Sequence record: OZ035799.1
Source: Justusliebigvirus alia
Direction: 5' to 3' (one strand)
DNA: 64,000 nucleotides
Positions within the stretch are counted from its first letter, which is position 1. Each line of letters starts with the position of its first letter. Below are positions 47,760-60,944 of this stretch, piece by piece. The notes below the pieces were generated by a model that saw only the letters and a program-made list of their open reading frames with translations, had not been told where the DNA came from and did not search any database. The translations under genes and the position numbers were made by a program.

Positions 47760-47974
47760 TATTTTGAAAATTTTTATTTTTATAAAAAGGGGTGTGGGTT
47801 TCATGTACGGAAATTCACCCTCTGAATAATATATCCAGAGTAAGTATTATTTTGTACTCTGTTAATAAATTATTTAATTTGTTTGTTGGAATATGTTATC
47901 TGGTTTTTAAAAGGCATACTATCTCTTAACTACTACTTATAACAGAACAGTAAAATCATTTTTATAAAAAGGAC

Positions 47975-48180
47975 AAAATTATTTAAAGTTTTTACAGATT
48001 TTTGGGTACAAATTTAGAAAATGAAAAGTTCAAGTTTGGTCAAAATTATTTAAAGTTTTTGTACGTATTTCTATCCAGATTTTGAAAATGAAAACTTCAA
48101 TTTTTTAAAAATTCCCCAGTTTATTTAAAGTTTTTTTGCCTTTTTCCGTAGAAAAATCAAAAATGAAAAGTTCAATTTCG
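47975..48180. repeat. three copies of ~55-bp direct repeat (AAAATTATTTAAAGTTTTT...GAAAATGAAAAGTTCAA)
   Basis: Both sub-motifs recur three times in same order within 200 bp of AT-rich non-coding DNA. Confidence 0.6.
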
Positions 48181-48198
48181 TGTTTTTATGGGTGTGCG

Positions 48199-48312
48199 TA
48201 TGATAATCATTTTCATTTGTAAATGAGAATCATTATCATTTAAGTATGTAAGTGATAATCATTCTCACTAAGAGAATGAGAATCATTAGCAAATGAGAAT
48301 TTTTCTCATTTA
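48199..48312. promoter_or_regulatory. cluster of five Fur-box-like palindromes
   Basis: TGATAATCATTTTC, TGAGAATCATTATC, TGATAATCATTCTC, GAGAATCATTAGC and perfect palindrome AAATGAGAA-TTT-TTCTCATTT; up to 13/14 match to GATAATGATAATCATTATC core. Confidence 0.45.
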
Positions 48313-48573
48313 GAGAATAACGCGCAGGGGTGGTGTTTGTCTCGCGCTCCCGTGTCCCCTCGCCATACAATAAGAATAGCATAACCAACAACAAAAGCAA
48401 GCGATTATTTTTATCTTTACATTTCTTTACAAATTTATTTTAGACGAGCTACCGGCGATCAACCTTCCAACCAGTAGTGCCCTGGTATGTTAGCCCCGCC
48501 TTTACGCCGTGGGGGTGGCGTTTCCTCTTCTGTATGTAAAACAGTATAAGCCCGATCCCTGGGCTTGTCAAGA

Positions 48574-48840
48574 TTATTTTTTGTTTTCTTGCCAGGATAG
48601 GACACCTAACCAAAAATACATGTCGCCCCGCGCCCCTGGCGGGATCTTGCTTTCCCCGCCGCCACTGCAAGCCCATAGATAACCATTTACGAACGTATCA
48701 AAGTGATCTATCTCTTCCACCTTATGATTGCCCAGGTTGAGAACGGTTTCAACCTTTAAGCCCGTTGCGCTTGCTACCTGGTGCACCGTGCCGCCTTGCC
48801 AGCCCAATGAGTGCATGAGATGTAAAGGAGTATTTGTCAT
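48574..48840 (-). CDS. hypothetical protein encoded in GC-rich island
   Basis: 88-aa ORF (MTNTPLHLMHSLGWQGG...) with AAAGGG RBS; surrounding ~600 bp clearly more GC-rich than rest of window. Confidence 0.3.
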   Translation of the reverse strand: MTNTPLHLMHSLGWQGGTVHQVASATGLKVETVLNLGNHKVEEIDHFDTFVNGYLWACSGGGESKIPPGARGDMYFWLGVLSWQENKK

Positions 48841-49105
48841 GGTATCGCCCTTTCTTTGATGTGCGCCCTGGTTGGCGCGGTAGAAAGATAATAGCCGTTT
48901 CCTTTATAGATAGCAAGCAAAAAAGAAATGAAAAAAGATTAAAAAAATGGTTGACGTTCCTCACCTGGTAGCGTAGTATTCATCTTGTCGAGGGGGCGAG
49001 GCACAACGACAATAAACAAAAGGAGGGCGCAATGTAGGACGGGCAAAGGTGAGGATCTCCACAATCCACCGTCACAATAACATTACTTATAAAAGGTTGA
49101 TAACG

Positions 49106-49201
49106 ATGATCAAGAAAGAAAACAGCTTGACGGTTGGAACGATTAACGCTATCATTCTTGCCGTTCCATTTTGGGTTGTAGTAGCGGTTATTATTTTTTA
49201 A
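49106..49201 (+). CDS. possible small membrane peptide (31 aa)
   Basis: ATG with weak AAGG; hydrophobic; not in track. Confidence 0.2.
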   Translation: MIKKENSLTVGTINAIILAVPFWVVVAVIIF

Positions 49202-49209
49202 AAATATTC

Positions 49210-49267
49210 TTGACAACGTTTTTTAATCTGATAAGATGTATCACATAGGGCGGCAATAGTGCCGCTC
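49210..49267 (+). promoter_or_regulatory. promoter-hairpin cassette (TTGACA ... CACATAGGGCGGCAATAGTGCCGCTC)
   Basis: sigma70 -35, then conserved CACATAGGG element with stem GCGGCA/TGCCGC, ~22 nt before ATG 49290. Confidence 0.55.
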
Positions 49268-49289
49268 ATAACAGAAGAGAGAAATAATC

Positions 49290-49562
49290 ATGGCATCATA
49301 TAGCGCATCAATGATTGTAATGGGTATCACTGGTAAACCTATGCGCGGTGGCGGATCTTTCGCTAACATCAATATTGATGGACGTTTATCCCTGGACGCA
49401 GCGATCACAGTGGCACGGGAAACGTTTAAAAAAGAATGTAATTTCAATAAACAAGATTATCTCGGCTTCGTTATTGAAAAAACCGCGCGCTTTGTTGATT
49501 ATAAAAGCCCGAAAATGATCGACACTACACTAAAGGCGCAAGATGTAGCTTTTTTGCTTTAA
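49290..49562 (+). CDS. hypothetical small early-type protein
   Basis: 90-aa track ORF behind cassette. Confidence 0.6.
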   Translation: MASYSASMIVMGITGKPMRGGGSFANINIDGRLSLDAAITVARETFKKECNFNKQDYLGFVIEKTARFVDYKSPKMIDTTLKAQDVAFLL

Positions 49563-49565
49563 GGC

Positions 49566-49625
49566 TTGACACTGAAAAATAATTTGGTAATATATACCAC
49601 ATAAGGCGGGAAATGGTTTCCCGCC
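49566..49625 (+). promoter_or_regulatory. promoter-hairpin cassette (TTGACA ... GGCGGGAAATGGTTTCCCGCC)
   Basis: Perfect 9-bp inverted repeat with TGG loop downstream of -35/-10. Confidence 0.6.
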
Positions 49626-49647
49626 AAATCAAAGAAAGGGTAACACA

Positions 49648-50010
49648 ATGAGCAAGCAAATCAATACTATCATGTTAAACCTGGTATCTTTCCGTGATGA
49701 CGTGAAAAATCTTTCGCGTGATGCAGTGGATGCACGGATCGAAAGCTATCGCACACAGATCGCAACATTACCGTTAAAACGTGATCAACATGCCGCTAAT
49801 ATGATGCTTGATGCTATGATTAAAAAGATGATTCAGTGTGATCTTACCCTGGCTTATGAATATGCTGGCGATCTCTTTGTAACGTATAATAAGCCCGTTC
49901 CAGGTATGAGCACCACGGAAGAATTGCATGCCTTAAATCTGCGACAAGATGCATGGGATAACATGCGCCGTGTTATGGTATGGGCCGAAAGCGGTAAAAT
50001 TTACGAATAA
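49648..50010 (+). CDS. hypothetical protein
   Basis: 120-aa track ORF; AAAGGG RBS. Confidence 0.6.
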   Translation: MSKQINTIMLNLVSFRDDVKNLSRDAVDARIESYRTQIATLPLKRDQHAANMMLDAMIKKMIQCDLTLAYEYAGDLFVTYNKPVPGMSTTEELHALNLRQDAWDNMRRVMVWAESGKIYE

Positions 50011-50016
50011 AAACGG

Positions 50017-50070
50017 TTGACATTGCACGAAAACCTGATAAGCTATCTTAAAGCGGGAATAGTTCCCGCT
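50017..50070 (+). promoter_or_regulatory. promoter-hairpin cassette (TTGACA ... AGCGGGAATAGTTCCCGCT)
   Basis: -35 hexamer plus 8-bp stem variant of the conserved hairpin. Confidence 0.55.
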
Positions 50071-50088
50071 TACATAGGATAAAACTTT

Positions 50089-50235
50089 ATGAAACAATAT
50101 GTAATGAGTATTCACACCAAAAACGGCGCTACTGTTACGACTCCGGCACGGTTTGCACTTGTAAACCGTTGCAAGAGACTAAAACGAGAGCTAAAAAATA
50201 ACCGTGCAACCGGTTTTAAACGCTGGGGAGGATAA
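50089..50235 (+). CDS. small basic protein (48 aa)
   Basis: Not in track; directly behind cassette; stop overlaps RBS of next gene. Confidence 0.45.
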   Translation: MKQYVMSIHTKNGATVTTPARFALVNRCKRLKRELKNNRATGFKRWGG

Positions 50236-50237
50236 TC

Positions 50238-50498
50238 TTGTTTTTTCTAAAAGTTTTTGATAATGTGATCGCTTTTGAACATGCTACGACGTTCGACCTG
50301 GCGAGATACGCTATCAGGTTTAAAGATAATGTTTATCCCCGTGCTGGCGGCGGTTACACTATTTTTAATCATCGTAATGCGCAACTAACAGATATAACGA
50401 ATCCAGATCCTGGAGTGTATCGCATAGGCTGGCTACCGTCAAAAGACGCTGCAAGCATGTTTAAGGTATGTAAACTACTAACAGAAGAGGCGAACTAA
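50238..50498 (+). CDS. hypothetical protein
   Basis: 86 aa; TTG start 5 nt after GGGGAGGA. Confidence 0.5.
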   Translation: MFFLKVFDNVIAFEHATTFDLARYAIRFKDNVYPRAGGGYTIFNHRNAQLTDITNPDPGVYRIGWLPSKDAASMFKVCKLLTEEAN

Positions 50499-50499
50499 C

Positions 50500-51054
50500 A
50501 TGGGGCGTGAATATGTGATCCAGTCCTGGGTAAAGCATGATGCTAATGATCCGCGCATAATACCAGATGACATGATCGATCACATGGTAGGGTATAGCGG
50601 GGAGCAGATAGGAAATCGAGCGGCAAAGAGCAACGGCAACACCAGGACGCGATCCGTTCGCCCTGGATGGCTGGCGAATGGTAACGCTGACATTGCAAGC
50701 GCCGCAGATCCAAGCGATGACGCTAAAAATAATCCCTTATACAGCATTGATCCGGCTTTTAAGGTGTTGGAAGAGTATCCCGCTAAATTAGCCGCACTAG
50801 ATAAGGCATACGAAGAAAAGCGCATGGCATGGACTGTATACAACACCGCTAAAATGGTGCTAGATGCAAAATTGATTAAAGCCCAGGAGAAGATCAATAA
50901 ACTTGTTGCAGTAGCGCAAGAGGAAGACCAGGGCGACCAGGAGGAAGAGGAAGAAATCATGCCTACCCTGGAAGAGGAAGAGATCCAGCCATACATGCCG
51001 ACGGAAGAGGAAAAAAGACAAGCCTTAAAAAATTATGAAAATTGCATTGTGTAA
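50500..51054 (+). CDS. hypothetical protein with acidic C-terminal tail
   Basis: 184-aa track ORF; C-terminus EEDQGDQEEEEE. Confidence 0.55.
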   Translation: MGREYVIQSWVKHDANDPRIIPDDMIDHMVGYSGEQIGNRAAKSNGNTRTRSVRPGWLANGNADIASAADPSDDAKNNPLYSIDPAFKVLEEYPAKLAALDKAYEEKRMAWTVYNTAKMVLDAKLIKAQEKINKLVAVAQEEDQGDQEEEEEIMPTLEEEEIQPYMPTEEEKRQALKNYENCIV

Positions 51055-51057
51055 GGC

Positions 51058-51113
51058 TTGACATATGCAAACAAGCCCCGTAATATATACCACATAGAGC
51101 GGGGCAACGCCTC
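51058..51113 (+). promoter_or_regulatory. degenerate promoter-hairpin cassette
   Basis: TTGACA, TAATAT, then CACATAGAGCGGGGCAACGCC (imperfect copy of conserved element). Confidence 0.4.
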
Positions 51114-51132
51114 AAAGGTGAAATAAAAATCA

Positions 51133-51161
51133 CTTGACACCTGAAATCAGTAAGCTATAAT
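51133..51161 (+). promoter_or_regulatory. consensus sigma70 promoter (TTGACA-N17-TATAAT)
   Basis: Perfect -35 and -10 hexamers with 17-bp spacer, ~37 nt upstream of ATG 51199. Confidence 0.65.
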
Positions 51162-51198
51162 GCTTATATAGATTGAAACATTACTAAGGAATAAAAGC

Positions 51199-51378
51199 AT
51201 GGCTATTATTGCAAAGACTGAGATCGTAGGTTTAGATTCTATCATCCTGGCATATGAGGAAGCTATAGAAATGTATGTGGTTTCCTATGGTGATTATATC
51301 CGTGAATATAAATTTATTGATCTAGCTTTTGAATGTTATATTCACCAGGTCAATAAAGCCTATGATGATTATCGTTAA
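51199..51378 (+). CDS. small hypothetical protein (59 aa)
   Basis: Not in track; AAGGAATAA RBS; downstream of consensus promoter. Confidence 0.45.
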   Translation: MAIIAKTEIVGLDSIILAYEEAIEMYVVSYGDYIREYKFIDLAFECYIHQVNKAYDDYR

Positions 51379-51397
51379 AAGTTTTAGTCTTGTGCTA

Positions 51398-51426
51398 TTG
51401 ACAACGAACGATAGTACAAGCATAAT
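51398..51426 (+). promoter_or_regulatory. sigma70 promoter (TTGACA-N17-CATAAT)
   Basis: Hexamers upstream of ATG 51474; no hairpin in this copy. Confidence 0.5.
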
Positions 51427-51473
51427 AACTTTTATCGGGAATACTCCTAACTAATCAAAAGAGATTAAAGACT

Positions 51474-51839
51474 ATGGCTAAAAATATCAATGTTTCTGCT
51501 TATGCTACCCTGGCTAACACTGCTAAAATTGAACTATCCAGCATTGAAGCGGTACATATTAGCGCCCGTCGCTGGTTTCAAAAGTCTTATGGTAATACTT
51601 ATTTCTCTTTGATGGTTGACGTTGAGATCGGCGGTAAACTGATTGAAGTCGTTAACGTTCCGTTTCATTATGGTTATGGTGATCATTTTGATACCGTTGC
51701 CCTGGAAGAGTTTAGCAAGGTTATCAACCTGGAAGGTAAAGACTTTTCAAATTATGCTTACCTTTCCCGTTTTTGCCGTGACAATGGGATCGCTGTATAC
51801 AGTCATGCAAGCGATGTTAAACGTAAAAAAGATTTATAA
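51474..51839 (+). CDS. hypothetical protein
   Basis: 121-aa track ORF. Confidence 0.6.
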   Translation: MAKNINVSAYATLANTAKIELSSIEAVHISARRWFQKSYGNTYFSLMVDVEIGGKLIEVVNVPFHYGYGDHFDTVALEEFSKVINLEGKDFSNYAYLSRFCRDNGIAVYSHASDVKRKKDL

Positions 51840-51845
51840 AAAGCA

Positions 51846-51903
51846 TTGACAGCACGAATAAAAAGCATATAATACTTATATCGAGAGCGGGAATAGTTCC
51901 CGC
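51846..51903 (+). promoter_or_regulatory. promoter-hairpin cassette (TTGACA-N16-TATAAT ... GCGGGAATAGTTCCCGC)
   Basis: Near-consensus promoter followed by conserved stem-loop. Confidence 0.6.
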
Positions 51904-51927
51904 CTCACTGAAAAAGAGATTAACATC

Positions 51928-52167
51928 ATGGCTAAATCTAAAATGTACAACGGTCACAAAAACAAAACTCATTGGAATGTAAGCCTTTGGATTAATAACG
52001 ATGAATCGTTATACTTATACGCTGTAGGTTTAATAAATGAGTGTGGTAATAAAGATAAAGCGGCGGATCTAATGTGCTACAGATTAAAACAGGACGGAAT
52101 CACTCATACACCTGATGGTTTCAAGTATAGTAAAACTGCAATCCGTGCCGCTATGGTTGGAATGTAA
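51928..52167 (+). CDS. hypothetical protein
   Basis: 79-aa track ORF. Confidence 0.6.
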   Translation: MAKSKMYNGHKNKTHWNVSLWINNDESLYLYAVGLINECGNKDKAADLMCYRLKQDGITHTPDGFKYSKTAIRAAMVGM

Positions 52168-52180
52168 AGGAGACATAAAA

Positions 52181-52261
52181 ATGAAACATCGTTCGACCTA
52201 TCTCACAAAACGTTTTAGCTTAGATCATAAATTGGGCTATTACGGAAGAAATAGAAAATAA
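52181..52261 (+). CDS. possible micro-ORF (26 aa)
   Basis: ATG after AAAGGAGAC; ends at next promoter. Confidence 0.25.
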   Translation: MKHRSTYLTKRFSLDHKLGYYGRNRK

Positions 52262-52262
52262 T

Positions 52263-52322
52263 TTGACACTGTTTAAAATTCTGGTATAGTTTATCACATA
52301 GGGCGGGAAATGGTTTCCCGCC
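52263..52322 (+). promoter_or_regulatory. promoter-hairpin cassette (TTGACA-N16-TATAGT ... GGCGGGAAATGGTTTCCCGCC)
   Basis: Same 21-nt hairpin as at 49605, 53182, 57503. Confidence 0.6.
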
Positions 52323-52344
52323 AAATCAAAGAAAGGTTATCATT

Positions 52345-52572
52345 ATGGCTATCGTTATTGTTCGCGTATCCGGTACGGTTGGAATCTCTCAGGTAGTAGC
52401 AGTTATCACAGAGAAGAAAGGGGATGATCTTCACTCCTCCTTGAATAGCTGGGCGGTCGCTAACTTTGGGCAATGGTCGAGCGTTGAGTACATCGAAGCC
52501 TACCAGGTGCCAACGATTAGCCTAACCGATCTGAATGTTGATCGCTTGTTGTGCCTGGATCAATTAAATTAA
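52345..52572 (+). CDS. hypothetical protein
   Basis: 75-aa track ORF. Confidence 0.6.
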   Translation: MAIVIVRVSGTVGISQVVAVITEKKGDDLHSSLNSWAVANFGQWSSVEYIEAYQVPTISLTDLNVDRLLCLDQLN

Positions 52573-52580
52573 AAATAATA

Positions 52581-52638
52581 TTGACAAGATAACTAAAATC
52601 AGTAAAATGTAATGCATAGGGCGGCAATAGTGCCGCTC
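52581..52638 (+). promoter_or_regulatory. promoter-hairpin cassette (TTGACA ... GGGCGGCAATAGTGCCGCTC)
   Basis: Same hairpin variant as at 49248 and 56429. Confidence 0.55.
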
Positions 52639-52659
52639 CTAGTGAGAGAGATTATCAAA

Positions 52660-52875
52660 ATGACTAATATCCGCACCTTGTTAAAAAATGCAAAGCAAGT
52701 TTTATTTTCAGATGACGAATATTTTAATAAAGATATTACAGGCGTGAAAAATTTAAAAGACGTGAAGGATGTTATCGGTATCCGTGGATCTTTACGTAAA
52801 GGTGACATATACGGTAACAAGGTGCAATATAAACTGTCAAAAGATTATGATTTTACTTTGACATTTATTTCATAA
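52660..52875 (+). CDS. hypothetical protein
   Basis: Track ORF 52612 starts inside cassette; ATG at 52660 follows cassette. Confidence 0.55.
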   Translation: MTNIRTLLKNAKQVLFSDDEYFNKDITGVKNLKDVKDVIGIRGSLRKGDIYGNKVQYKLSKDYDFTLTFIS

Positions 52876-52881
52876 AACCGC

Positions 52882-52942
52882 TTGCAATACTGCAAAAATA
52901 AAGTAAACTGTACTCATCAAGGCGGTGGAATAGCCCACCGCC
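52882..52942 (+). promoter_or_regulatory. promoter-like TTGCAA plus hairpin GGCGGTGG-AATAG-CCACCGCC
   Basis: 8-bp perfect stem with AATAG loop as in other cassettes. Confidence 0.45.
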
Positions 52943-52965
52943 TAACAAAGAGAAGAGGAAACATC

Positions 52966-53136
52966 ATGATCACTTTCGCTACCCGTGAAGCCGCTCGCAA
53001 CGTTGCACGTAAAGTTAACGCCGCCAACCTGGGCGCTACGCTTAAAGCCCCGGTAAAAGATGAATCAGGTAAATGGATCTTCCCTGGTCTGCGTCACGCT
53101 GATAAGCTGGGAACGTTAACGCTAAAAAATAAATAA
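52966..53136 (+). CDS. small hypothetical protein (56 aa)
   Basis: ATG after AGAGAAGAGGAAA; track ORF extends upstream through hairpin. Confidence 0.5.
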   Translation: MITFATREAARNVARKVNAANLGATLKAPVKDESGKWIFPGLRHADKLGTLTLKNK

Positions 53137-53143
53137 AATCCGC

Positions 53144-53202
53144 TTGACAGTAGCATCATTTATAAGTAAAGTAACAACAACGGCGGGAAATGGTTTCCCG
53201 CC
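53144..53202 (+). promoter_or_regulatory. promoter-hairpin cassette (TTGACA ... GGCGGGAAATGGTTTCCCGCC)
   Basis: -35 hexamer and conserved 21-nt hairpin. Confidence 0.6.
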
Positions 53203-53222
53203 ATCAATAAAGAGATAAGATC

Positions 53223-53582
53223 ATGAAATCAGTAAAAGCAATTAAAACTTACATTGTGTCGGCTATTTCTTTTGATGGTACTACAACCGAAAAAGAAAAG
53301 ATCACCGAACTGATGCGCCGTTTTAACTCTGAATACTGGTATCCCGATAATCAAAAACGTTACAATTATAACGTGATCAAGGCGATAGCCTCATGGTTAC
53401 AAGGTTTACCGTCAGAAATCAATATTGCTTTTGATTATAACGAGATCGATCACTTGTTAATTGAATGGAAGTACATAAAAGAAACAAGCAAAGAAACAAC
53501 CGTTACCCGTGAGCGGGAAAATTATTGGTTATATATTGCAAGCATGATCGTAATCCTGGCAAAACAGCATAACGTGGCGTAA
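53223..53582 (+). CDS. hypothetical protein
   Basis: 119-aa track ORF. Confidence 0.6.
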   Translation: MKSVKAIKTYIVSAISFDGTTTEKEKITELMRRFNSEYWYPDNQKRYNYNVIKAIASWLQGLPSEINIAFDYNEIDHLLIEWKYIKETSKETTVTRERENYWLYIASMIVILAKQHNVA

Positions 53583-53597
53583 TTAAGAGGAAGAAAC

Positions 53598-53735
53598 ATG
53601 AACGCATCACAGCAGATCGAAAAATTCAACCGCAGCAAGGCGCGTAAAGATTGGAACGAAGAGATCACCAAAAAAGGCGACAAGCGGAACAAAACAAAGA
53701 GAGATCGCAGCACAAAAAGATACTGGAACGAATAA
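53598..53735 (+). CDS. small highly basic protein (45 aa)
   Basis: Not in track; ATG after AAGAGGAAGAAA; followed by terminator. Confidence 0.4.
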   Translation: MNASQQIEKFNRSKARKDWNEEITKKGDKRNKTKRDRSTKRYWNE

Positions 53736-53742
53736 CAAAAAA

Positions 53743-53763
53743 GGGCGCAATAAGCGCCCTTTT
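53743..53763 (+). terminator. rho-independent terminator (GGGCGC-AATAA-GCGCCC + T-run)
   Basis: Same terminator sequence recurs at ~59124. Confidence 0.55.
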
Positions 53764-53853
53764 AGCTTATATAGAGGCTTGTTACCCATAGGCAATGGTA
53801 ATGCCAGGATAAGCCTATAAACCACGTTAGACAGCTTTACAGGAGCTTTAAAA

Positions 53854-54036
53854 ATGAAATTAGAAGAAATAAGCAAGGCACTAGCCCAGGGGCAAAGGTT
53901 AAACGCCCGTTATCGTGATCAATATGGCTTCATAACCAGCGGCGTGATCCTGGGGATTGAAGGCAATAAGATTTTTATTGACACGTTGAAAAACGTTGTA
54001 TATAGTGACAATATAATCTCAATAAAACATATATGA
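53854..54036 (+). CDS. hypothetical protein
   Basis: 60-aa track ORF; AGGAG RBS. Confidence 0.5.
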   Translation: MKLEEISKALAQGQRLNARYRDQYGFITSGVILGIEGNKIFIDTLKNVVYSDNIISIKHI

Positions 54037-54044
54037 GGCAAGAA

Positions 54045-54446
54045 ATGAAAAAATTATTGATCGCTGGTTTAATCTCTTTTGGCATGGTTGGAACATCTAG
54101 CGCGGCGATATCCTCCACAGTAGCAGAATTAAGCGCCGTTGATGCAATGGAAAACGTCATGCTTATTAATAATGCGATCCCCGATGAAATCATGGAGGAT
54201 TCACACATGATCGCTTATGGTGCTGTTACACAACTAACGGCAAAAATAGATAAATCTATTGTTAATGGCTTAAATGAAGATGTACCATGTGAAATTATTA
54301 CCAGTGTGCTCACTACTCAAAATTTTACGCCGTGGTTAAAAAGTATTCAAAAAGTACACAGTACAGCCGCAGATCGTAGCAATGAAAAACTAGTGTCAGC
54401 ACTTGCAACGTATACCCTAGCAAAATGTACCGAGATAAAAGATTGA
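54045..54446 (+). CDS. secreted protein with signal peptide
   Basis: MKKLLIAGLISFGMVGTSSAA signal peptide; track start 54033 is 4 codons upstream. Confidence 0.5.
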   Translation: MKKLLIAGLISFGMVGTSSAAISSTVAELSAVDAMENVMLINNAIPDEIMEDSHMIAYGAVTQLTAKIDKSIVNGLNEDVPCEIITSVLTTQNFTPWLKSIQKVHSTAADRSNEKLVSALATYTLAKCTEIKD

Positions 54447-54493
54447 CAATATAGAAAGCACGTTATAAGATACACACAACAAAGGAGAACTAC

Positions 54494-54796
54494 ATGAACG
54501 GCATAGCTAAAACGTTTTTTCTTTTTTCTGGTGTAAATGATCCATCAATAAAAGTCGATAGTGTAAAAGAAAACAATACTATCACAGCTAAATTGTCTCA
54601 AGATGAAACAAATAACGTGCTAATCATTAATCTTAAAGAAATAACAAAAGGTTATTACACTATTGCTTACCATGCGATCTATAATGCTGGTACTAGTGAG
54701 GAAGTGCAAACAAGCAACAACGAAAGCGCGGCGCTACCTGGTGATCTGGTGCTGGGCGTTATCAGTTTAATTGTCAATGATTTTTTTAAGGAGTAA
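54494..54796 (+). CDS. hypothetical protein
   Basis: 100-aa track ORF; AAAGGAGAA RBS. Confidence 0.55.
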   Translation: MNGIAKTFFLFSGVNDPSIKVDSVKENNTITAKLSQDETNNVLIINLKEITKGYYTIAYHAIYNAGTSEEVQTSNNESAALPGDLVLGVISLIVNDFFKE

Positions 54797-54800
54797 AACC

Positions 54801-54896
54801 ATGCCCTATTTACATTTATTTTTCGGTATCTTATTGACAGGATCTTTTTTCTTCTGTATGCTTGTTTCTATTGTAAACCACGTTTTAAGACATTAA
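54801..54896 (+). CDS. possible hydrophobic peptide (31 aa)
   Basis: ATG 4 nt after AAGGAG; not in track. Confidence 0.3.
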   Translation: MPYLHLFFGILLTGSFFFCMLVSIVNHVLRH

Positions 54897-54905
54897 GGAA
54901 ACAGC

Positions 54906-55025
54906 ATGAAAATTATTCCCGTACAGTATAGCGTAATAAATCCAGCATATGAGGAAGGAAGGAAAACAAGCATGGCTTTATGTTGTATTGCTACTATAGC
55001 CATGTTATTATATATTGTGTTTTAA
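54906..55025 (+). CDS. possible small membrane protein (39 aa)
   Basis: ATG after AAGGAAACAGC; hydrophobic C-terminus. Confidence 0.3.
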   Translation: MKIIPVQYSVINPAYEEGRKTSMALCCIATIAMLLYIVF

Positions 55026-55054
55026 TAGGTTTTATAGTTGTACGCTTTAAAGGC

Positions 55055-55085
55055 TTGACAATTTTTTGTTATGCTTTAAAATATA
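55055..55085 (+). promoter_or_regulatory. putative sigma70 promoter (TTGACA)
   Basis: -35 hexamer upstream of ATG 55126; no clear hairpin. Confidence 0.35.
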
Positions 55086-55125
55086 TCTTGAAAACGGCAA
55101 AGGCCGCAAACAAAAGGGTAAAATT

Positions 55126-55449
55126 ATGAAATCTGTGATCGGTGTTTATTTGGATAACTCTGATTTTTTCTATCATCGTGCGCGTTTCCTTGATGCGATT
55201 GAAATGATAGAATCAGGCTTTAAAGAGTATCGCCTTGCACATGATGACCTGGAAGCATTACAGGGCAATAGTGTTTTTACATTGCAAGCTAAAGCACTAT
55301 GCAAAAGCCGGATCGACATTGCAAGCAAAAAGATAGAACGCGGCATGTCCTGGTTGCGCACCGCAGAAATCAACATGGGGCAATGGTACGGCGAAAACTT
55401 AGAAAATAAACACACTTTTGTAAATGTAGAAAATATTAAAGATTATTGA
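55126..55449 (+). CDS. hypothetical protein
   Basis: Track ORF 55066 begins at TTG inside promoter; ATG at 55126 after AAAGGG. Confidence 0.5.
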   Translation: MKSVIGVYLDNSDFFYHRARFLDAIEMIESGFKEYRLAHDDLEALQGNSVFTLQAKALCKSRIDIASKKIERGMSWLRTAEINMGQWYGENLENKHTFVNVENIKDY

Positions 55450-55511
55450 TTGACAGCACACCTGATAAGTAATATATTGTATCTCATAGAGCGGGGAAAT
55501 GGTTTCCCCGC
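55450..55511 (+). promoter_or_regulatory. promoter-hairpin cassette (TTGACA ... GCGGGGAAATGGTTTCCCCGC)
   Basis: -35 directly after upstream stop; conserved hairpin variant. Confidence 0.6.
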
Positions 55512-55531
55512 CTTAACAGAAGAGATAAGAT

Positions 55532-55816
55532 ATGAAGATCACAAAAGCACTTTCCAACTATGCAGCACGTCGCGGCTTATGCTTAACCGTTGAAAACTTA
55601 GGGAAAGAAGATTTTTTGTGCTTTTGGGAGCTTGAGAATGATAATGAGTGGATCTTCTCTTATTCTATCTGCAAAGATCAAAATGGTTGCTTGTTAACAT
55701 GGCGAGGTAATATCTATTTACCGGAAGAAATAAAACAAGAATTACCAGGCACGATCATGACTGAGAAACAGCTTAAGGAAGTGATCAATTTTGTAGGGCA
55801 AAACATTAAAAAATAA
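55532..55816 (+). CDS. hypothetical protein
   Basis: 94-aa track ORF. Confidence 0.6.
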   Translation: MKITKALSNYAARRGLCLTVENLGKEDFLCFWELENDNEWIFSYSICKDQNGCLLTWRGNIYLPEEIKQELPGTIMTEKQLKEVINFVGQNIKK

Positions 55817-55817
55817 T

Positions 55818-55877
55818 TTGACAGTAGGCAAACAACGTAGTAAAGTTTATCACATAGGGCGGGAAATGGTTTCCCGC
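55818..55877 (+). promoter_or_regulatory. promoter-hairpin cassette (TTGACA-N17-TAAAGT ... GGGCGGGAAATGGTTTCCCGC)
   Basis: Conserved TATCACATAGGGCGGG element. Confidence 0.6.
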
Positions 55878-55900
55878 TCACAACAAAAGAGAAACAAATC

Positions 55901-56071
55901 ATGATCCCGACTATGTTTTACGTATCGCGCAAAGGTCACAATATTTTTTGGTCTGAAGATTTAAATGAAGCCATGACGTTTGCCCGTGATCGTGTTGCTA
56001 TCGGTGGCGTTAATATTACCGTAACCGATGAAAACGGCATTGAATACTACAACGGCGACGATGAAGAGTAA
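55901..56071 (+). CDS. small hypothetical protein (56 aa)
   Basis: Not in track; ATG ~23 nt after hairpin. Confidence 0.45.
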   Translation: MIPTMFYVSRKGHNIFWSEDLNEAMTFARDRVAIGGVNITVTDENGIEYYNGDDEE

Positions 56072-56078
56072 TTAATAA

Positions 56079-56100
56079 GGCGGGGGGAGTATTCCCCGCC
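56079..56100 (+). promoter_or_regulatory. stand-alone hairpin (GGCGGGGGGAGTATTCCCCGCC)
   Basis: Variant of conserved stem-loop without upstream -35, 20 nt before ATG 56120. Confidence 0.4.
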
Positions 56101-56119
56101 ATCAATAAAGAGATAAATC

Positions 56120-56389
56120 ATGAAAATATCATTGGACGTTGCAATCAAGGCCATCGAATCCGGTTACACCCTGGTAAAAGATGATAAGGCTAAAATAGTG
56201 CATCATGTTAACAAGGAAACAGGCGAAAGCATGATCACATATAAAGCCGCCTACTTTCTCCAATCAGTAGCAGATCCGCGCGTACAGCGCCAGGTCACGG
56301 CGGCTATTGCTAAAAAATTATGTGCTTTACAGGGCACAAGTTTTAACGAGATCCCGCCGTGTTTTGACTGGTCGAGCTTGAAAAAATAG
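56120..56389 (+). CDS. hypothetical protein
   Basis: 89-aa track ORF. Confidence 0.6.
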   Translation: MKISLDVAIKAIESGYTLVKDDKAKIVHHVNKETGESMITYKAAYFLQSVADPRVQRQVTAAIAKKLCALQGTSFNEIPPCFDWSSLKK

Positions 56390-56390
56390 T

Positions 56391-56448
56391 TTGACAAAAA
56401 TTATAAATCGGGTAGAATGTATTTCGTAGGGCGGCAATAGTGCCGCTC
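56391..56448 (+). promoter_or_regulatory. promoter-hairpin cassette (TTGACA-N16-TAGAAT ... GGGCGGCAATAGTGCCGCTC)
   Basis: Good -10 and conserved hairpin. Confidence 0.6.
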
Positions 56449-56469
56449 GCAACTAAAAGAGAAATCATC

Positions 56470-56664
56470 ATGGCGCTTAAAAAACTAACAAGCAATACTC
56501 GTTGGGATGAAATCGACGGGGAAGTATACATTTTCGCCCGTAAACCAGGTGATCAAAAATGGTCAAAGGCTTTTACTTGTCACCCTGCAACAATAGATCT
56601 AATAAAAAGTAAAGGTTTACGTGAAGCAGTAGCGAGAAGTTTACTGATTCCTTGTAAAAAATAG
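56470..56664 (+). CDS. hypothetical protein
   Basis: Track ORF 56440 starts within hairpin; ATG at 56470 after AAAGAGAAA. Confidence 0.55.
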   Translation: MALKKLTSNTRWDEIDGEVYIFARKPGDQKWSKAFTCHPATIDLIKSKGLREAVARSLLIPCKK

Positions 56665-56665
56665 T

Positions 56666-56727
56666 TTGACAATATGCGGTTATCTGGTAAAGTGTACCAC
56701 GTAGGGCGGGGCAATAAGGCAACGCCC
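56666..56727 (+). promoter_or_regulatory. promoter plus degenerate hairpin (TTGACA ... GGGCGGGGCAATAAGGCAACGCCC)
   Basis: -35 hexamer; imperfect copy of conserved element. Confidence 0.45.
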
Positions 56728-56745
56728 ACTAATGAGGGTAAAATC

Positions 56746-56850
56746 ATGTTAGAGAAAATTTTCACGGTTGTAATAGTGGGCCTGGCGTTATCGGTTGGAG
56801 TGATTGCAACTATGGCTAACATGATCCTATCTTCCCACGGTATTGGATAA
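56746..56850 (+). CDS. small membrane peptide (34 aa)
   Basis: Not in track; ATG after GAGGG; one hydrophobic helix. Confidence 0.35.
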   Translation: MLEKIFTVVIVGLALSVGVIATMANMILSSHGIG

Positions 56851-56860
56851 GGTGAATCAA

Positions 56861-57076
56861 ATGATCACGAATAAGACAGGTAAAACGGAATTTTTACGCG
56901 GCTTGCAAATAGGTAAACCTGAGATCTGGCATTGCACTAAAAGACCACGTGACGAAATGAAAGATTTCACCGCTACTTTACAACGTGTTAAAATATCTAT
57001 CACACAGAAAAAAGCCTTGTTAGTAGTAGAAAACGAGATCCCGCAAACCATTATTATTGTCGAGCGTACAGCATGA
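56861..57076 (+). CDS. hypothetical protein
   Basis: Track ORF 56843 starts at TTG; ATG at 56861 after AAGGTG. Confidence 0.5.
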   Translation: MITNKTGKTEFLRGLQIGKPEIWHCTKRPRDEMKDFTATLQRVKISITQKKALLVVENEIPQTIIIVERTA

Positions 57077-57459
57077 AAACTGAAATCATTAACGAAATGA
57101 TCAACGGCTATAAAGAAGCCTTTATTTTTGCCGAACCAGCGACGGATCACAATGGGGAATATATTGAGAATCTAGACGATTATGATTTTTCTCCTAGCGC
57201 CCTGAAACGTATTACCAGCGATGTGACCGCCTTTTGTAGTGCCAATGTTGCCGCTATCTCTGAGGCAATGAGCGACGGCGCAACAGCAAACCAGATCGGG
57301 AATGACTTACATTTCACCCGTAACGGTCACGGCGTAGGCTTTTGGGATCGCCCTGAAATATACACTACTAACACCGCCAACCGCCTAACAAATGCAGCTA
57401 AATTAATGCCATCGGTGCATGCTTACATTGGTGAAGATAATTTGATTTATATTGAATAA
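57073..57459 (+). CDS. hypothetical protein
   Basis: 128-aa track ORF; ATGA overlap with upstream gene. Confidence 0.55.
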   Translation: MKTEIINEMINGYKEAFIFAEPATDHNGEYIENLDDYDFSPSALKRITSDVTAFCSANVAAISEAMSDGATANQIGNDLHFTRNGHGVGFWDRPEIYTTNTANRLTNAAKLMPSVHAYIGEDNLIYIE

Positions 57460-57464
57460 AAGTA

Positions 57465-57523
57465 TTGACACCGATCCCCAGTATGGTATTATTTACCACG
57501 TAGGCGGGAAATGGTTTCCCGCC
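57465..57523 (+). promoter_or_regulatory. promoter-hairpin cassette (TTGACA ... GGCGGGAAATGGTTTCCCGCC)
   Basis: Conserved 21-nt hairpin. Confidence 0.6.
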
Positions 57524-57546
57524 AGGTAATCAAAAAGGTAAATACT

Positions 57547-57936
57547 ATGCGCAACCTGGTTTCTGTTTCTAACGTTGAAAAATTCCAATCTTTACAGGGT
57601 ATCGTTAACAACGTAGCGCCTTTTTTAGTCAATGGCTTGATTGCAAAGATGAAGAATAAACATCATGCCGCATGGTCTGCTTACTGCTTTGACAATGATG
57701 AAAAAGCGGCTGAAATGATGTTAAATATGCTGTTAGACAGTGTAGAATCATCTTTACCGGAAAACATCGCAGAAGAGATCACCTATCGTTATAATATGGC
57801 GATCACTTACCAGGAGGTTGCGCAATTTAATATGATGGATGATGACGAACAACAGGATCAGGAAATTTTCTGGGAGTATGCTGATCGCCAATCGGCTTTT
57901 GATGAAAAATTAGCGATGTATTATAATGAATATTAA
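57547..57936 (+). CDS. hypothetical protein
   Basis: Track ORF 57511 starts within hairpin; ATG at 57547 after AAAAAGG. Confidence 0.55.
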   Translation: MRNLVSVSNVEKFQSLQGIVNNVAPFLVNGLIAKMKNKHHAAWSAYCFDNDEKAAEMMLNMLLDSVESSLPENIAEEITYRYNMAITYQEVAQFNMMDDDEQQDQEIFWEYADRQSAFDEKLAMYYNEY

Positions 57937-57952
57937 TACACGGTAAAAGAAA

Positions 57953-57976
57953 GGGGCGCACTAAGCGCCCTTTTTT
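57953..57976 (+). terminator. rho-independent terminator (GGGGCGC-ACTAA-GCGCCCC + T6)
   Basis: GC stem plus TTTTTT after stop at 57936. Confidence 0.6.
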
Positions 57977-58322
57977 GTATTCTTTTTTCACAATGGAAGC
58001 GACACGTAAAGAATAGGCGTAAAGGTGGCGTAAAACCATCTAAAACCGACTGTAACCGCTTAAACAAGGTAGGAATGATTAATCACCTTACCAGGATGAA
58101 AAAGCCGTTATAAAGCTATCTAGAGCGTTTAAAGCACATAGGAAATAATTTGCTTTTTATCTTGCCTTTTATTCTGCTTTTGATTATTATTATGGAACGG
58201 GCGGCACCTGGGGACAGGGGGAAGATAATCACCGGACGACCCCGCTATATATTGATAGCTAACATCTATCAAACAACAAAACATCAAAGAAATAAACTAT
58301 CAAATCTTTACAATCTCATCTA

Positions 58323-58351
58323 TTGACCGATAAATCATAGCAGTTTAATAT
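58323..58351 (+). promoter_or_regulatory. sigma70 promoter (TTGACC-N17-TAATAT)
   Basis: ~50 nt upstream of ATG 58400, after ~440-bp non-coding stretch. Confidence 0.45.
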
Positions 58352-58399
58352 TGTTTTTAGAGGGTAGAACATACCCAAAACGAAAACAGGAAAAAGAAA

Positions 58400-58636
58400 A
58401 TGAAAGAAGTCATGATCCTCAAAAAATCACCTATTTTACGTGGTGGCTTTATCGCTTACTCTGATGATCTGTTAATTGCAACGGTTGCAAAAATACTAAA
58501 ATCAGAAGAGGATAGTAAAAACGGCGTTTATCGTATCTGTTTCACCCGTGGGAAATTGCAAGGCAAGATCGCCTATGCTTTTGATTTACAAGATGTAAAT
58601 GATAAAATCTGCGCTGTTATTGATTATGCAAAATAA
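58400..58636 (+). CDS. hypothetical protein
   Basis: 78-aa track ORF. Confidence 0.55.
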   Translation: MKEVMILKKSPILRGGFIAYSDDLLIATVAKILKSEEDSKNGVYRICFTRGKLQGKIAYAFDLQDVNDKICAVIDYAK

Positions 58637-58648
58637 TTAACTTTCTTA

Positions 58649-58700
58649 TTGACACCGGATCACGCTTACATTATTATTTATCACGTAGGGCAAATCATTT
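58649..58700 (+). promoter_or_regulatory. promoter plus degenerate conserved element (TTGACA ... TATCACGTAGGGCAAATC)
   Basis: -35 hexamer; CACGTAGGGC retains 5-prime half of conserved element without stem. Confidence 0.4.
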
Positions 58701-58723
58701 TAAACGGTAAACGAGGAAACACC

Positions 58724-59107
58724 ATGAGCAATATCATCAACCTGGCAGCGACTGTAAACGGTAAAGACTTTAACGGCGCTGTAGACCGTGATCCTATGTG
58801 GTGCTTATCAGTGTTTAAAGGCGACCTGGTTGAAGTTAGAACAACCGAAGGGTATAGCGATGATTATAAATGCGAGATCCATTTACATAACTGGTACACG
58901 GGTAAAACTTATGCGCTGAATCACGCGTTTATCGGGAAAATTGAATATCGCGAAATGATCGACGAAGAAACGGGGCAAGATTTTAGCGATTATGTTTATA
59001 TTCGTTCCGAAACATTAGCCGAACGGTTGATCGAGAAAATGAAAGCAAAAAATAAAATTAATTTATCTCATTGGATTGATATAACAAACGATCCAGCTTA
59101 TCAGTAA
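58724..59107 (+). CDS. hypothetical protein
   Basis: Track ORF 58649 begins in promoter; ATG at 58724 after ACGAGGAAA. Confidence 0.55.
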   Translation: MSNIINLAATVNGKDFNGAVDRDPMWCLSVFKGDLVEVRTTEGYSDDYKCEIHLHNWYTGKTYALNHAFIGKIEYREMIDEETGQDFSDYVYIRSETLAERLIEKMKAKNKINLSHWIDITNDPAYQ

Positions 59108-59123
59108 ATAACATTCCATACAA

Positions 59124-59149
59124 GGGCGCAATAAGCGCCCTTTCTTTTT
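59124..59149 (+). terminator. rho-independent terminator (GGGCGC-AATAA-GCGCCC + T-run)
   Basis: Identical stem-loop to 53743; ends the small-gene array. Confidence 0.6.
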
Positions 59150-59354
59150 ACCTCAATAAAGATGATAGCTTTTACCTATCAAAAACGTTCACCGAAAAAA
59201 GTGAATAGATCGCGGTATCGAGCTAATCAAGGAGCAGATGAACAACCATACCATGAAGATCATAAGGCGCTTACAACGTGTTTTAGACCGCTTATTTTTA
59301 ATTTCTTCATGCAACTATCTGGCAAAAACAGCCTTTTTCTTGTCTTTCCTCTTA

Positions 59355-59430
59355 AATGATAATCATTCTTATTTATAGCTGATTATTTATGCAATAAACT
59401 GCATAATGCAATAATGATAATCATTCTTAA
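59355..59430. promoter_or_regulatory. two Fur-box-like motifs (AATGATAATCATTCTTA; AATGATAATCATTCTTAA)
   Basis: 12-13/14 match to Fur-box core, in AT-rich non-coding DNA. Confidence 0.4.
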
Positions 59431-59796
59431 CTTATGACCATCTAACCTATAAAATAATAAGTTATCTAACTAAATTAAAACTAATTATCTTACTTTTATT
59501 TATAACTTACTGTTACTATCTCATTGATAACCTTATATTAAACAACAATAACTAATATAAATCATTACTAAGCTAAATATAATCTATCTAACCTTTAAAA
59601 CTATAACTATAATCTATTGAATTATTGCACAAAGTAACTATTAAATCGTTAGTAACATTACTAAATAATTAATATCCTATTTATTTATGATCTAATCTTT
59701 ACCTTACTATCTATTACCTAAATAATCATTTTATACCGTAATCATTTCATACAATAATTATAACAAGAAATATAATTAGCAAGCGTATCATTAGCA

Positions 59797-59954
59797 GCCT
59801 ATGCCGGACACATAGGCGGCTAATAATAACGCAACTACACACCCCACATAATAACCATCACCGATAGTTATTATTTGTGCTTATGTAGCTTGCAACAACT
59901 GCAAGCGCAACAATATACATGGTATATTGTATTCCCTTACATTGTTGCGGTGCG
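59797..59954. repeat. nested inverted repeats (GCCTATG-N7-CATAGGC; ACAATATAC-ATG-GTATATTGT; GCGCAACAAT...ATTGTTGCG)
   Basis: Perfect palindromes read directly from sequence. Confidence 0.55.
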
Positions 59955-59990
59955 TTATTATTAGCTAATGTTTAGAACATTGGCTATAAT

Positions 59991-60063
59991 ATAAGCTATC
60001 CAATAATATAAGCTATCCAATAATAATAAGCTATACAATAATAATAAGCTATACAATAATAAA
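59991..60063. repeat. four tandem 17-18-bp direct repeats (ATAAGCTATCCAATAAT x2, AATAAGCTATACAATAAT x2), iteron-like
   Basis: Head-to-tail repeats in AT-rich intergenic DNA. Confidence 0.6.
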
Positions 60064-60227
60064 CATCGTGAATAATGATGCTGATGATCATAATGCGCCA
60101 CCTTCCAGGGCGGCGCTATGTGAACACAAAGAAATCTTTCTTGTCAAGAAAAATATTAACACTATTGCGCAAAATTATTTATATATGAATAGATGGTTTT
60201 TCATACTATTGCCCCTATAACATACCT

Positions 60228-60284
60228 CATTTGTTGCAATGTACCTTCCTATTTGTTGAGTATAGTTATAGCCTATTTGTTGAG
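60228..60284. repeat. three copies of (C)TATTTGTTGAG-type motif
   Basis: CATTTGTTGC, CTATTTGTTGAG, CTATTTGTTGAG spaced ~20 bp apart. Confidence 0.45.
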
Positions 60285-60353
60285 CCTACTTTCTTAAAAG
60301 CGCAATAAAGTAGAAATATCTTGATTTTTAGTCGGTTTTATAGTACAGAAAGT

Positions 60354-60377
60354 ATGCAAATGATAATCATTATCAGC
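60354..60377. promoter_or_regulatory. Fur-box-like motif (AAATGATAATCATTATCAG)
   Basis: Contains TGATAATCATTATC, 14/14 to Fur-box core. Confidence 0.45.
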
Positions 60378-60540
60378 TATCTTCCACGGGTAGCACTATT
60401 TCACGCCAGATCATTTCATTTGGCAAGGTGTATATAGATGTTTAGACTTGCCAAGCCATTGATTTACTTAGAATTTATCTGTTTTGTTGTGAGTAGTACC
60501 TTTCTTGCTCAGAAAATAATCAAAAGTCTTATAAGTCATT

Positions 60541-60574
60541 GAATGATAATGCAAATGATAATTATTCTCATTGA
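60541..60574. promoter_or_regulatory. tandem degenerate Fur-box-like motifs (GAATGATAATGCAAATGATAATTATTCTCATTGA)
   Basis: Repeated GATAAT half-sites. Confidence 0.35.
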
Positions 60575-60944
60575 TATTTGAGGGGGACGGTCGGCAGAAA
60601 TCGGGGGGCGCTGAAAATCGCGTTAAGCACCTCTCGCAAGCGAGCAGTATTTTGCGGCAAGTTATTGATATTATTGACTTTACGCTTATGAAAAGGGGGT
60701 GTGTCGAAATAAATCGGGTATACCGGAAAATTTTTGTGGCATAGATATTTATTTGTCTATATTATGTACAAAGGGGTGTGTTAAAAATATTAGGTATATA
60801 TAGAATAATTGATAGGGAAATCCTATGCTAATCCCTCCATTAATGATGTTCCTATGTTACTGTTCTTGTAATAGATGAAAAGACGCTGTATGATGTGTGG
60901 CATGAAACGTAAACTTACAACGTAAACTTATAAAGGAGTCTGAT

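Follow-up and report, generated by a model that had tools for sequence, protein, structure and literature searches.

Predicted Fur-box arrays as candidate end and boundary elements in the virulent phage Justusliebigvirus alia

Fur boxes are textbook operators of iron genes. Here we describe arrays of predicted Fur boxes that are stronger than the host's own and that lie at the ends and early-module borders of a virulent phage. The arrays were found in a window of 64,000 nucleotides (sequence record OZ035799.1), to which positions refer unless another sequence is named; it corresponds to positions 32001-96000 of the 148,442-bp genome of Justusliebigvirus alia, a phi92-like virulent myovirus of the Stephanstirmvirinae. 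Five boxes (station A, or cluster A) stand at the inner border of a right-terminal block of early genes, and two (station B1) lie just beyond the terminator of the small-gene array in that block. Two further stations, B2a and B2b, fall inside a direct terminal repeat, as follows from the placement of this repeat at 60283-60625.

To judge by their sequence, the station sites are very probably real Fur sites under selection. We read them as end and boundary elements that would be occupied by holo-Fur, and we give this reading as a whole about an even chance of being right. An initial annotation of the window had noticed that Fur-box-like motifs bracket a promoter-rich small-gene array on both sides, and this bracketing is borne out here and is kept in a second subfamily of phages. 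What is new beside it is the position of the right-hand sites within the terminal repeat, close to the physical ends as placed by homology, and the match of the left cluster to the injection-stop region of phage T5. Our literature search, in which subscription journals were thinly covered, found nothing that links Fur with Phapecoctavirus, with first-step transfer or with virulent-phage genomes; nor did it find a description of Fur-box arrays at virulent-phage termini or early-module borders, or of the T5 stop palindromes as Fur boxes. Both negatives are provisional.

Predicted Fur sites and the protein that would bind them

With up to two mismatches to the core TGATAATCATTATC, there are 17 strand-hits where 1.2 are expected, a count that none of 100 shuffles reaches, and 13 of the 17 fall within 48201-48290, 59357-59428, 60361-60375 and 60556-60570. 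The tally for this 14-mer core is one exact match, at 60361-60374, and eight sites with at most two mismatches. The 19-mer GATAATGATAATCATTATC gives five matches with up to three mismatches (0.02 expected), and the sites match both this 19-bp consensus and its 7-1-7 form TGATAATNATTATCA.

Scores were obtained with a palindromic 19-bp weight matrix to which 12 MG1655 regions that have been footprinted or gel-shifted with Fur each contributed their best site; the training coordinates were taken from Chen et al. 2007 (PMC2189734), and no phage site was used. In a leave-one-out analysis the host operators score 15.5-25.0 bits, and the phage sites, at 17.3-27.7 bits, match or exceed this range of proven operators. 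Eleven phage sites reach at least 17 bits, and they lie within 48199-48310, 59355-59431, 60353-60377 and 60548-60572. The numbers expected at this threshold from 1000 local dinucleotide shuffles are 0.004 for 48150-48350, 0.012 for 47760-49290, 0.054 for 59360-60940 and 0.007 for 60283-60625; none of the 1000 shuffles matched the four to five sites observed per region. Across the whole genome there are 14 sites of at least 15 bits, 11 of which are the station sites, and the other three are what chance would give. Moreover, six sites have a partner shifted by 6 bp that scores at least 10.9 bits (48216/48222, 48245/48251, 48269/48275, 59407/59413, 60353/60359 and 60548/60554), which brings the genome to about 16 dimer sites. 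In E. coli, every Fur operator that has been footprinted shows the same 6-bp overlap spacing (Chen et al. 2007, PMC2189734), which would seat two dimers on opposite faces of the DNA.

These results uphold the sequence observations of the initial annotation. The motifs it described were located, with a quality at or above that of real host operators by the matrix; the exact core that it placed in 60358-60376 and the perfect palindrome are at 60361-60374 and 48292-48312, respectively. The comparison of matrix scores with shuffled controls, a test set beforehand, put them far above AT-rich expectation. Could they nonetheless be chance palindromes in AT-rich non-coding DNA? The low G+C content of the shuffled regions (26-37%) would favour this idea, but the local shuffles, the genome-wide count and the conservation of the stations across subfamilies rule it out for practical purposes.

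Which protein would recognise the sites? They reproduce the host consensus, the 6-bp overlap included, the motif recurs in unrelated phages of Enterobacterales, and a lambda-type copy is gel-shifted by Fur; a shared host protein is therefore the simplest explanation. A phage-encoded Fur was ruled out by tblastn with E. coli Fur, which found nothing in the phage below E = 3.8. No DNA-binding Pfam domain was found in 10 neighbouring open reading frames (ORFs), and most of the small ORFs belong to no recognisable family. BLASTP detected no protein common to the T5 terminal repeat and the alia early block. Finally, the region is not a copy of a host locus or prophage, since it has no match among 5,426 E. 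coli genomes.

The alternative is that the boxes are operators or recognition repeats of a phage protein, or accessory sites of the terminase or of replication, that resemble Fur boxes and have spread horizontally. An identical 21-mer in T5 and alia would suit this explanation, as would the other phage-specific repeats beside the boxes and the arrays on uncultivated contigs that adjoin terminase genes. We nevertheless hold it to be very unlikely: the phage motif is the host consensus itself, with the overlap architecture of host operators and scores above theirs, no common protein or neighbouring DNA-binding domain was detected by the searches above, all identified carriers have Enterobacterales hosts, and a lambda-type site is bound by Fur in vitro (Chen et al. 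2007, PMC2189734). An unrelated phage regulator, which the initial annotation had kept as an option, is disfavoured for the same reasons, the motif being present in T5, lambda and unrelated uncultivated phages.

Placement and conservation of the stations

The 13-kb stretch around the Fur sites is 100% identical to positions 79900-93000 of OZ035770.1, also Justusliebigvirus alia. Plus-strand genes to the left of cluster A stop at 47759. The early block holds about 21 small genes at 49.1-58.7 kb, each with a near-consensus sigma-70 promoter. Beyond the array terminator the order is the B1 boxes (59355 and 59413), an AT-rich stretch full of repeats and the final 343 bp (60283-60625). The stretch 48199-60625 measures 12,427 bp, which is 8.4% of a genome of about 148.8 kb if one repeat copy is assumed in the assembly; cluster A is thus 12.4 kb, about 8.4%, from the right genome end.

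The borders of the 343-bp repeat, which were placed by homology, would be the physical ends of the virion DNA. The last base of a second independent record, PQ360875.1, is the same base as the right repeat border, and genomes of Stephanstirmvirinae carry direct terminal repeats at their ends (PMC12695924). B2a lies 70-94 bp from the left border of the repeat and B2b lies 53-77 bp from the right border.

How well are the stations kept in related phages? All the Fur sites are present in phi92, and B2b is invariant among five Justusliebigvirus sequences. Stations B1, B2a and B2b are kept in Klebsiella phage KP2025. In phAPEC8, in which only 13% of region B can be aligned, there are boxes after the last early gene (21 bits), at B2a (24 bits) and at B2b (17 and 27 bits). 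A search for related loci by the upstream protein gave five loci. A 153-kb phage from IMG/VR keeps five boxes with altered sequences next to a protein of 58% identity, and its flanking repeats have diverged. Moreover, five Vequintavirinae with hosts in Salmonella, E. coli, Cronobacter, Serratia and Proteus have one to five Fur boxes beside a conserved non-coding element that also lies to the right of cluster A in alia. The order is the same in all five (three repeats of about 65 bp, then the Fur boxes, then the conserved element), and the register of the last box is fixed. Their three repeats (loci L057-L061, at about 1150-1450) are of unrelated sequence, GGTTCTCGATCG...GTATTTTTTCT...GAAAAAATTTTT, with number and place unchanged. 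One of the relatives, 4MG (KF550303.1), also carries boxes on the distal side of its early array, five in all and of about 20-21 bits, although the adjoining genes there have the reverse orientation. The stations are thus kept across two subfamilies despite turnover of their flanks, which argues that the bracketing of the early block is old and selected. Two more boxes of 4MG (17.1 and 22.2 bits) stand at 120746-120814, within its early array, so in some relatives boxes are not limited to the borders.

A sensitive BLAST search with cluster A led to T5, at 9608-9709, inside the injection stop signal annotated in repeat region 3 of its left terminal repeat, and to several T5 relatives. T5 (AY543070.1) has boxes at 9552 (22.8 bits), 9656 (27.7 bits), 9662 (15.6 bits), 9691 (22.1 bits) and 9697 (20.0 bits), and the one at 9656 is the same 21-mer, AAATGAGAATCATTATCATTT, as in box A2 of alia. 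This cluster, at 9552-9715, spans the estimated shear point of first-step transfer at about 9618 (Davison, 10.1101/866236) and ends 33 bp from the major nick at 9748/9749; it is kept in T5-like metagenomic contigs. The same author reported that the palindromes and repeats of the stop region are conserved and that their function is 'impossible to guess', and never mentioned Fur (10.1101/866236). In the first 62 kb of T5 the sole site of at least 17 bits besides the cluster is at 231-249. This is an exact 7-1-7 box, ACTGATAATCATTATCATC (18.8 bits), which lies 231 bp from the left, first-entering end, in the 3' part of dmp.

Consensus boxes are found near DNA ends in other phages as well. Lambda (NC_001416.1) has an exact 7-1-7 box, TGATAATCATTATCA, at 48451-48465, only 34 bp from its right end, which is the end that is injected first. 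A copy in the Qin prophage (MG1655 1636591-1636609) lies beside a cos sequence, 224 bp upstream of nohA. Strong Fur sites have been described in front of nohB and nohA, which are terminase genes of cryptic prophages, and the one at nohA was gel-shifted (Chen et al. 2007, PMC2189734); they were previously catalogued as E. coli sites. In the literature we found neither an assigned function for the cos-proximal box of lambda and lambdoid phages nor a discussion of it as a phage feature.

An exact scan of IMG/VR with the 21-mer returned 36 loci, many of them with multi-box arrays. Several arrays are intergenic and adjoin genes for the terminase large subunit, and one group of contigs has a T7-type terminase. 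Clusters of two to five stations lie at 5780-5912 of L017, 2216-2342 of L046, 4494-4640 of L014 and 3476-5461 of L043; in L017 and L046 there are five tandem stations about 28 bp apart. A megablast comparison of L017 and L043 with isolated phages gave no match. On a further contig from a jumbo phage (L026, 345,809 bp), strong boxes at 21-40, 247-271 and 1081-1105 are each followed by TTTAC(A/T)GTACTG, which suggests a repeated regulatory unit.

Cluster A has conserved neighbours on both sides (Table 1). The three direct repeats of about 70 bp immediately to its left could be iterons or phage-specific binding sites. To its right, A5 keeps a fixed distance to the conserved element, a register found in eight phages, and BLAST matches to the element (70-85% identity) occur in Vequintavirinae of five host genera. 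The core of the element contains GATCCACCTTCC, which on the plus strand we take to resemble the 3' end of 16S rRNA. RNAalifold, run on both strands of the element, found neither covariation nor a convincing consensus fold (about -19 kcal/mol), and we therefore claim no small RNA. Rfam matched nothing in these regions at the gathering threshold, and the matches in E-value mode were all far below it. The strong promoter at 48571-48543 reads leftward through the element towards cluster A, and equivalent hexamers stand in the same place in GEC_vB_MG, 4MG, CR8, Kashira and Mydo. It is, at about 230 bp, one of the two strong promoters nearest to the Fur boxes, the other being on the plus strand at 48951. 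No Fur box overlaps a promoter of at least 10/12, and the -35/-10 overlap typical of an operator is thus absent.

Further repeats lie in the right-hand region. Two copies of CCTATTTGTTGAG (60248-60291), possible recognition elements of the terminase, reach exactly to the left border of the terminal repeat. At 59991-60062 there are four tandem repeats of 17-18 bp, ATAAGCTATCCAATAATAA. A perfect 15-nt inverted repeat, GCTAATAATAACGCA / TGCGTTATTATTAGC, has its arms 117 nt apart and smaller hairpins inside; it spans 59819-59965, a segment that is among the few parts of the right-hand region kept in Phapecoctavirus. In relatives, the genes at 49-59 kb are annotated as hypothetical proteins in almost every case. 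No tRNAs were found in the window, and a group I catalytic intron (RF00028; 72.3 bits against a gathering score of 50, E = 2e-16) at 30780-31055 on the minus strand presumably splits a minus-strand gene.

Table 1. Predicted Fur boxes and other features of the window
Feature	Position	Strand	Score or basis
Fur box A1, TATGATAATCATTTTCATT	48199..48217		25.8 bits
Fur box A2, double site	48216..48240		48216, 11.0 bits; 48222 AATGAGAATCATTATCATT, 27.7 bits
Fur box A3, double site	48245..48269		48245, 10.9 bits; 48251, 17.3 bits
Fur box A4, double site	48269..48293		48269, 12.3 bits; 48275, 20.9 bits
Fur box A5, perfect palindrome AAATGAGAA-TTT-TTCTCATTT	48292..48312		21.8 bits
Fur box B1a, AATGATAATCATTCTTATT	59355..59373		25.9 bits
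Fur box B1b, double site	59407..59431		59407, 13.7 bits; 59413, 19.0 bits
Fur box B2a, classical double site with exact core	60353..60377		60353, 18.7 bits; 60359, 18.8 bits
Fur box B2b, double site	60548..60572		60548, 19.1 bits; 60554, 27.3 bits
Direct terminal repeat, 343 bp	60283..60625		homology with phi92 FR775895.2 148270-148612 (annotated right terminal repeat)
Three direct repeats, about 67-75 bp, TTATTTAAAGTTTTT ... GAAAATGAAAAGTTCAA	47958..48178		repeat search; repeat_region in alia MN850632
Conserved non-coding element, about 200 nt	48320..48540		near-invariant core CTACCGGCGATCCACCTTCC ... GTTAGCCCCGCCTTTTCGCCGTGGGGTGGCG
Conserved strong sigma-70 promoter TTGACA-17-TATACT	48543..48571	-	11/12 match
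Small-gene array (early block)	49127..58677	+	ORFs; 21 promoters of at least 10/12 on the plus strand
Intrinsic terminator closing the early array	59122..59142	+	promoter/terminator scan

Possible roles of the stations

What might Fur do at these stations? We propose that it would act as an architectural factor of ends and boundaries and not as a repressor of promoters. In an iron-replete cell, Fur-Fe2+ would coat the four stations upon entry of the DNA, and the resulting tight nucleoprotein plugs would delimit the early block transcribed by the host polymerase. The left plug would face the conserved leftward promoter at 48.57 kb, and the right plug, placed between the array terminator and the genes on the far side of the repeat, would keep transcription from running into the terminal repeat or out of it. 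The plugs could also mark the genome ends, and a step of entry, end handling or insulation could be affected. With plugs at ends and borders, such an end- or border-linked step would depend on host Fur and on the iron state of the cell. The same logic may extend to the clusters at the T5 injection stop and the right cos end of lambda. Boxes that adjoin physical ends, as predicted in alia and seen in lambda, or that lie near the left end, as in T5, suggest an end- or entry-linked role, and tandem arrays in convergent non-coding DNA fit a protein barrier.

Several points weigh against this proposal. Occupancy and function are both inferred from sequence alone, and a protein that depends on iron would be a strange candidate for a constitutive barrier. 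In lambda, cos lies in the path of late transcription, so that a strong roadblock cannot be the role everywhere. T5 forms plaques on fur mutants, which are in routine use, and Fur is therefore not essential for its growth. Additionally, the 21-mer shared by T5 and alia could reflect horizontal transfer of a phage-specific element, not convergence. Conservation of the boxes within the genus is only modestly above that of their surroundings, with 94% invariant columns in the boxes and 83% outside them in an alignment of Justusliebigvirus. In Vequintavirinae, finally, the last box of cluster A sits between the promoter-like hexamers of TTGAAT-N18-CAGAAT, an arrangement that favours a classical operator there.

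Classical iron-responsive operators are one alternative. Fur would repress a weak sigma-70 promoter at each station, and part of the phage programme would switch under iron starvation; a promoter over A5, for example, would read rightward into the 200-nt element and give a Fur-repressed small RNA, antisense to the transcript of the leftward promoter. The exact placement of the last box in the five Vequintavirinae, between hexamers 18 nt apart, speaks for such operators, as do a terminator-like hairpin on the plus strand at 48496-48521 and the overlap of 83% of host Fur clusters with promoters (Chen et al. 2007, PMC2189734). However, the -35 position reads GCAAAT in alia and phi92, so there is no promoter over A5 in these phages, and the Fur-repressed plus-strand promoter that is attractive in Vequintavirinae was dropped. 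The hexamer pairs that do overlap boxes match at only 9/12, a class that is modestly above shuffles in the scanned region (70 against 49.5 +/- 7.3). The distance from the B2b box to a GATATT hexamer differs by 5 nt between alia and phAPEC8, five tandem boxes exceed what a promoter needs, and neither strand shows RNA covariation. We therefore consider classical operators unlikely. The proposal of the initial annotation that iron controls early transcription finds no support either: none of the roughly 20 strong array promoters (49.1-58.7 kb) overlaps a Fur box.

A boundary of first-step transfer, as in T5, is a further alternative, which we think rather improbable. The right 12.4 kb would then enter first, and cluster A would be an injection-stop or pause signal or a lock bound by Fur. 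The BLAST match of cluster A inside the T5 injection stop signal points this way, as do the five strong T5 boxes around the shear point and near the major nick, which T5-like contigs keep. The resemblance extends to the size of the block (8.4% of the genome in alia, 7.9% in T5), to its strong sigma-70 promoters and small genes, and to the convergent non-coding cluster beside repeats. Against these likenesses stands a terminal repeat of 343 bp instead of about 10 kb. In addition, BLASTP of all ORFs from 44-64 kb against all T5 ORFs from 1-11 kb found no homologue of A1, A2 or dmp and nothing below E = 0.004; DnaA boxes (TTWTNCACA), which are paired in T5, are missing from 47760-49290 and 59110-60940. 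Moreover, two-step entry has never been reported for the phi92-like group, and it is hard to see how Fur, a cytoplasmic protein, would stop the transfer of DNA.

The boxes might instead form a sponge, in which replicating phage DNA would titrate Fur and derepress iron uptake for enzymes such as ribonucleotide reductase. Very high-scoring predicted sites would serve this purpose, with room for about 16 dimers per genome and for more on the second copy of the repeat; multicopy Fur boxes do titrate Fur, an effect on which the FURTA assay is built (cited in Chen et al. 2007, PMC2189734). A decoy, however, needs neither fixed stations at ends and borders nor a conserved register. Cells hold thousands of Fur molecules, against which one entering genome with its 16 or so dimer sites would be negligible. 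T5 degrades host DNA in the pre-early phase and so leaves nothing to derepress; derepression thus cannot explain the cluster in T5. Titration, which the initial annotation had also suggested, could still operate late in infection; at the time of entry it fails on numbers. As an explanation of the stations we regard it as improbable indeed.

Comparison with known systems

One likeness of the alia stations is to the stop region of T5. In both phages, five boxes that fit the Fur consensus (about 16-28 bits) lie in a convergent non-coding region beside direct repeats. In both, the cluster also delimits, on the inner side, a terminal block whose small genes have strong host-type promoters and which makes up 7.9% of the genome in T5 and 8.4% in alia. 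A cis element bordering a terminal block of about 8% of host-promoter-driven small genes, as known from T5, is therefore also present in alia. The two phages differ in their ends: the terminal repeat is 10.2 kb long in T5 and 343 bp long in alia, so the long repeat of T5 has no counterpart here. T5 also has nicks, and none were found in alia. The cos site of lambda and lambdoid phages offers a second likeness, as a consensus Fur box lies tens of bp from the end of the virion DNA there as in alia. Lambda, however, is a temperate siphovirus whose DNA has cohesive ends and just one such site there, whereas alia has a terminal repeat.

How far might the parallel reach? High-affinity Fur boxes could mark the first-entering or terminal DNA of enterobacterial phages in general, as a cis signal that has gone unrecognised, with cluster A as the equivalent of the T5 injection stop. 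Such a generalisation may draw on the right end of lambda, the first-step-transfer DNA of T5, the early blocks of phi92-like and rV5-like phages and the contigs with T7-type terminase. Fur-Fe2+ on the leading DNA would lock or pause a first-entering segment of 8% of the genome, and would tie the start of infection to host iron. We regard this generalisation as a long shot. If it were true, the T5 injection-stop problem, known since 1968, would become accessible at the molecular level for the first time, and phages would be using the iron sensor of the host as a structural or checkpoint factor at the start or end of their DNA cycle. The old question of the palindromes in the T5 stop region becomes open to simple experiments. 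The matter also has a practical side: Phapecoctavirus and Justusliebigvirus are components of therapy cocktails against E. coli in iron-poor sites, urine and serum among them, and a dependence on Fur or iron would affect their efficacy.

Outside the end regions of T5 and lambda, the alia boxes can be set beside three kinds of known sites. They share with the E. coli operators of fepA-fes, entC, fhuA, fhuF, cirA, sodA, fecI and ryhB the 19-bp box built of two 7-1-7 repeats 6 bp apart. The host boxes overlap promoters of iron genes, whereas those of alia occupy non-coding borders and the terminal repeat, in arrays of up to five. Fur boxes on phage DNA have already been described where they control cargo genes, for example sitABCD of lambdoid coliphages (PMC6969025) and also stx1. 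These are ordinary promoter operators of prophages; the alia boxes, in contrast, form arrays at the ends and borders of a virulent phage. The third kind is no more than an analogy: the sites of IHF, a host architectural protein used at the ends of phage DNA, in cosB and attP of lambda. IHF is another protein with another motif and has no metal sensing, but in both cases an abundant host DNA-binding protein would be placed next to the end of phage DNA.

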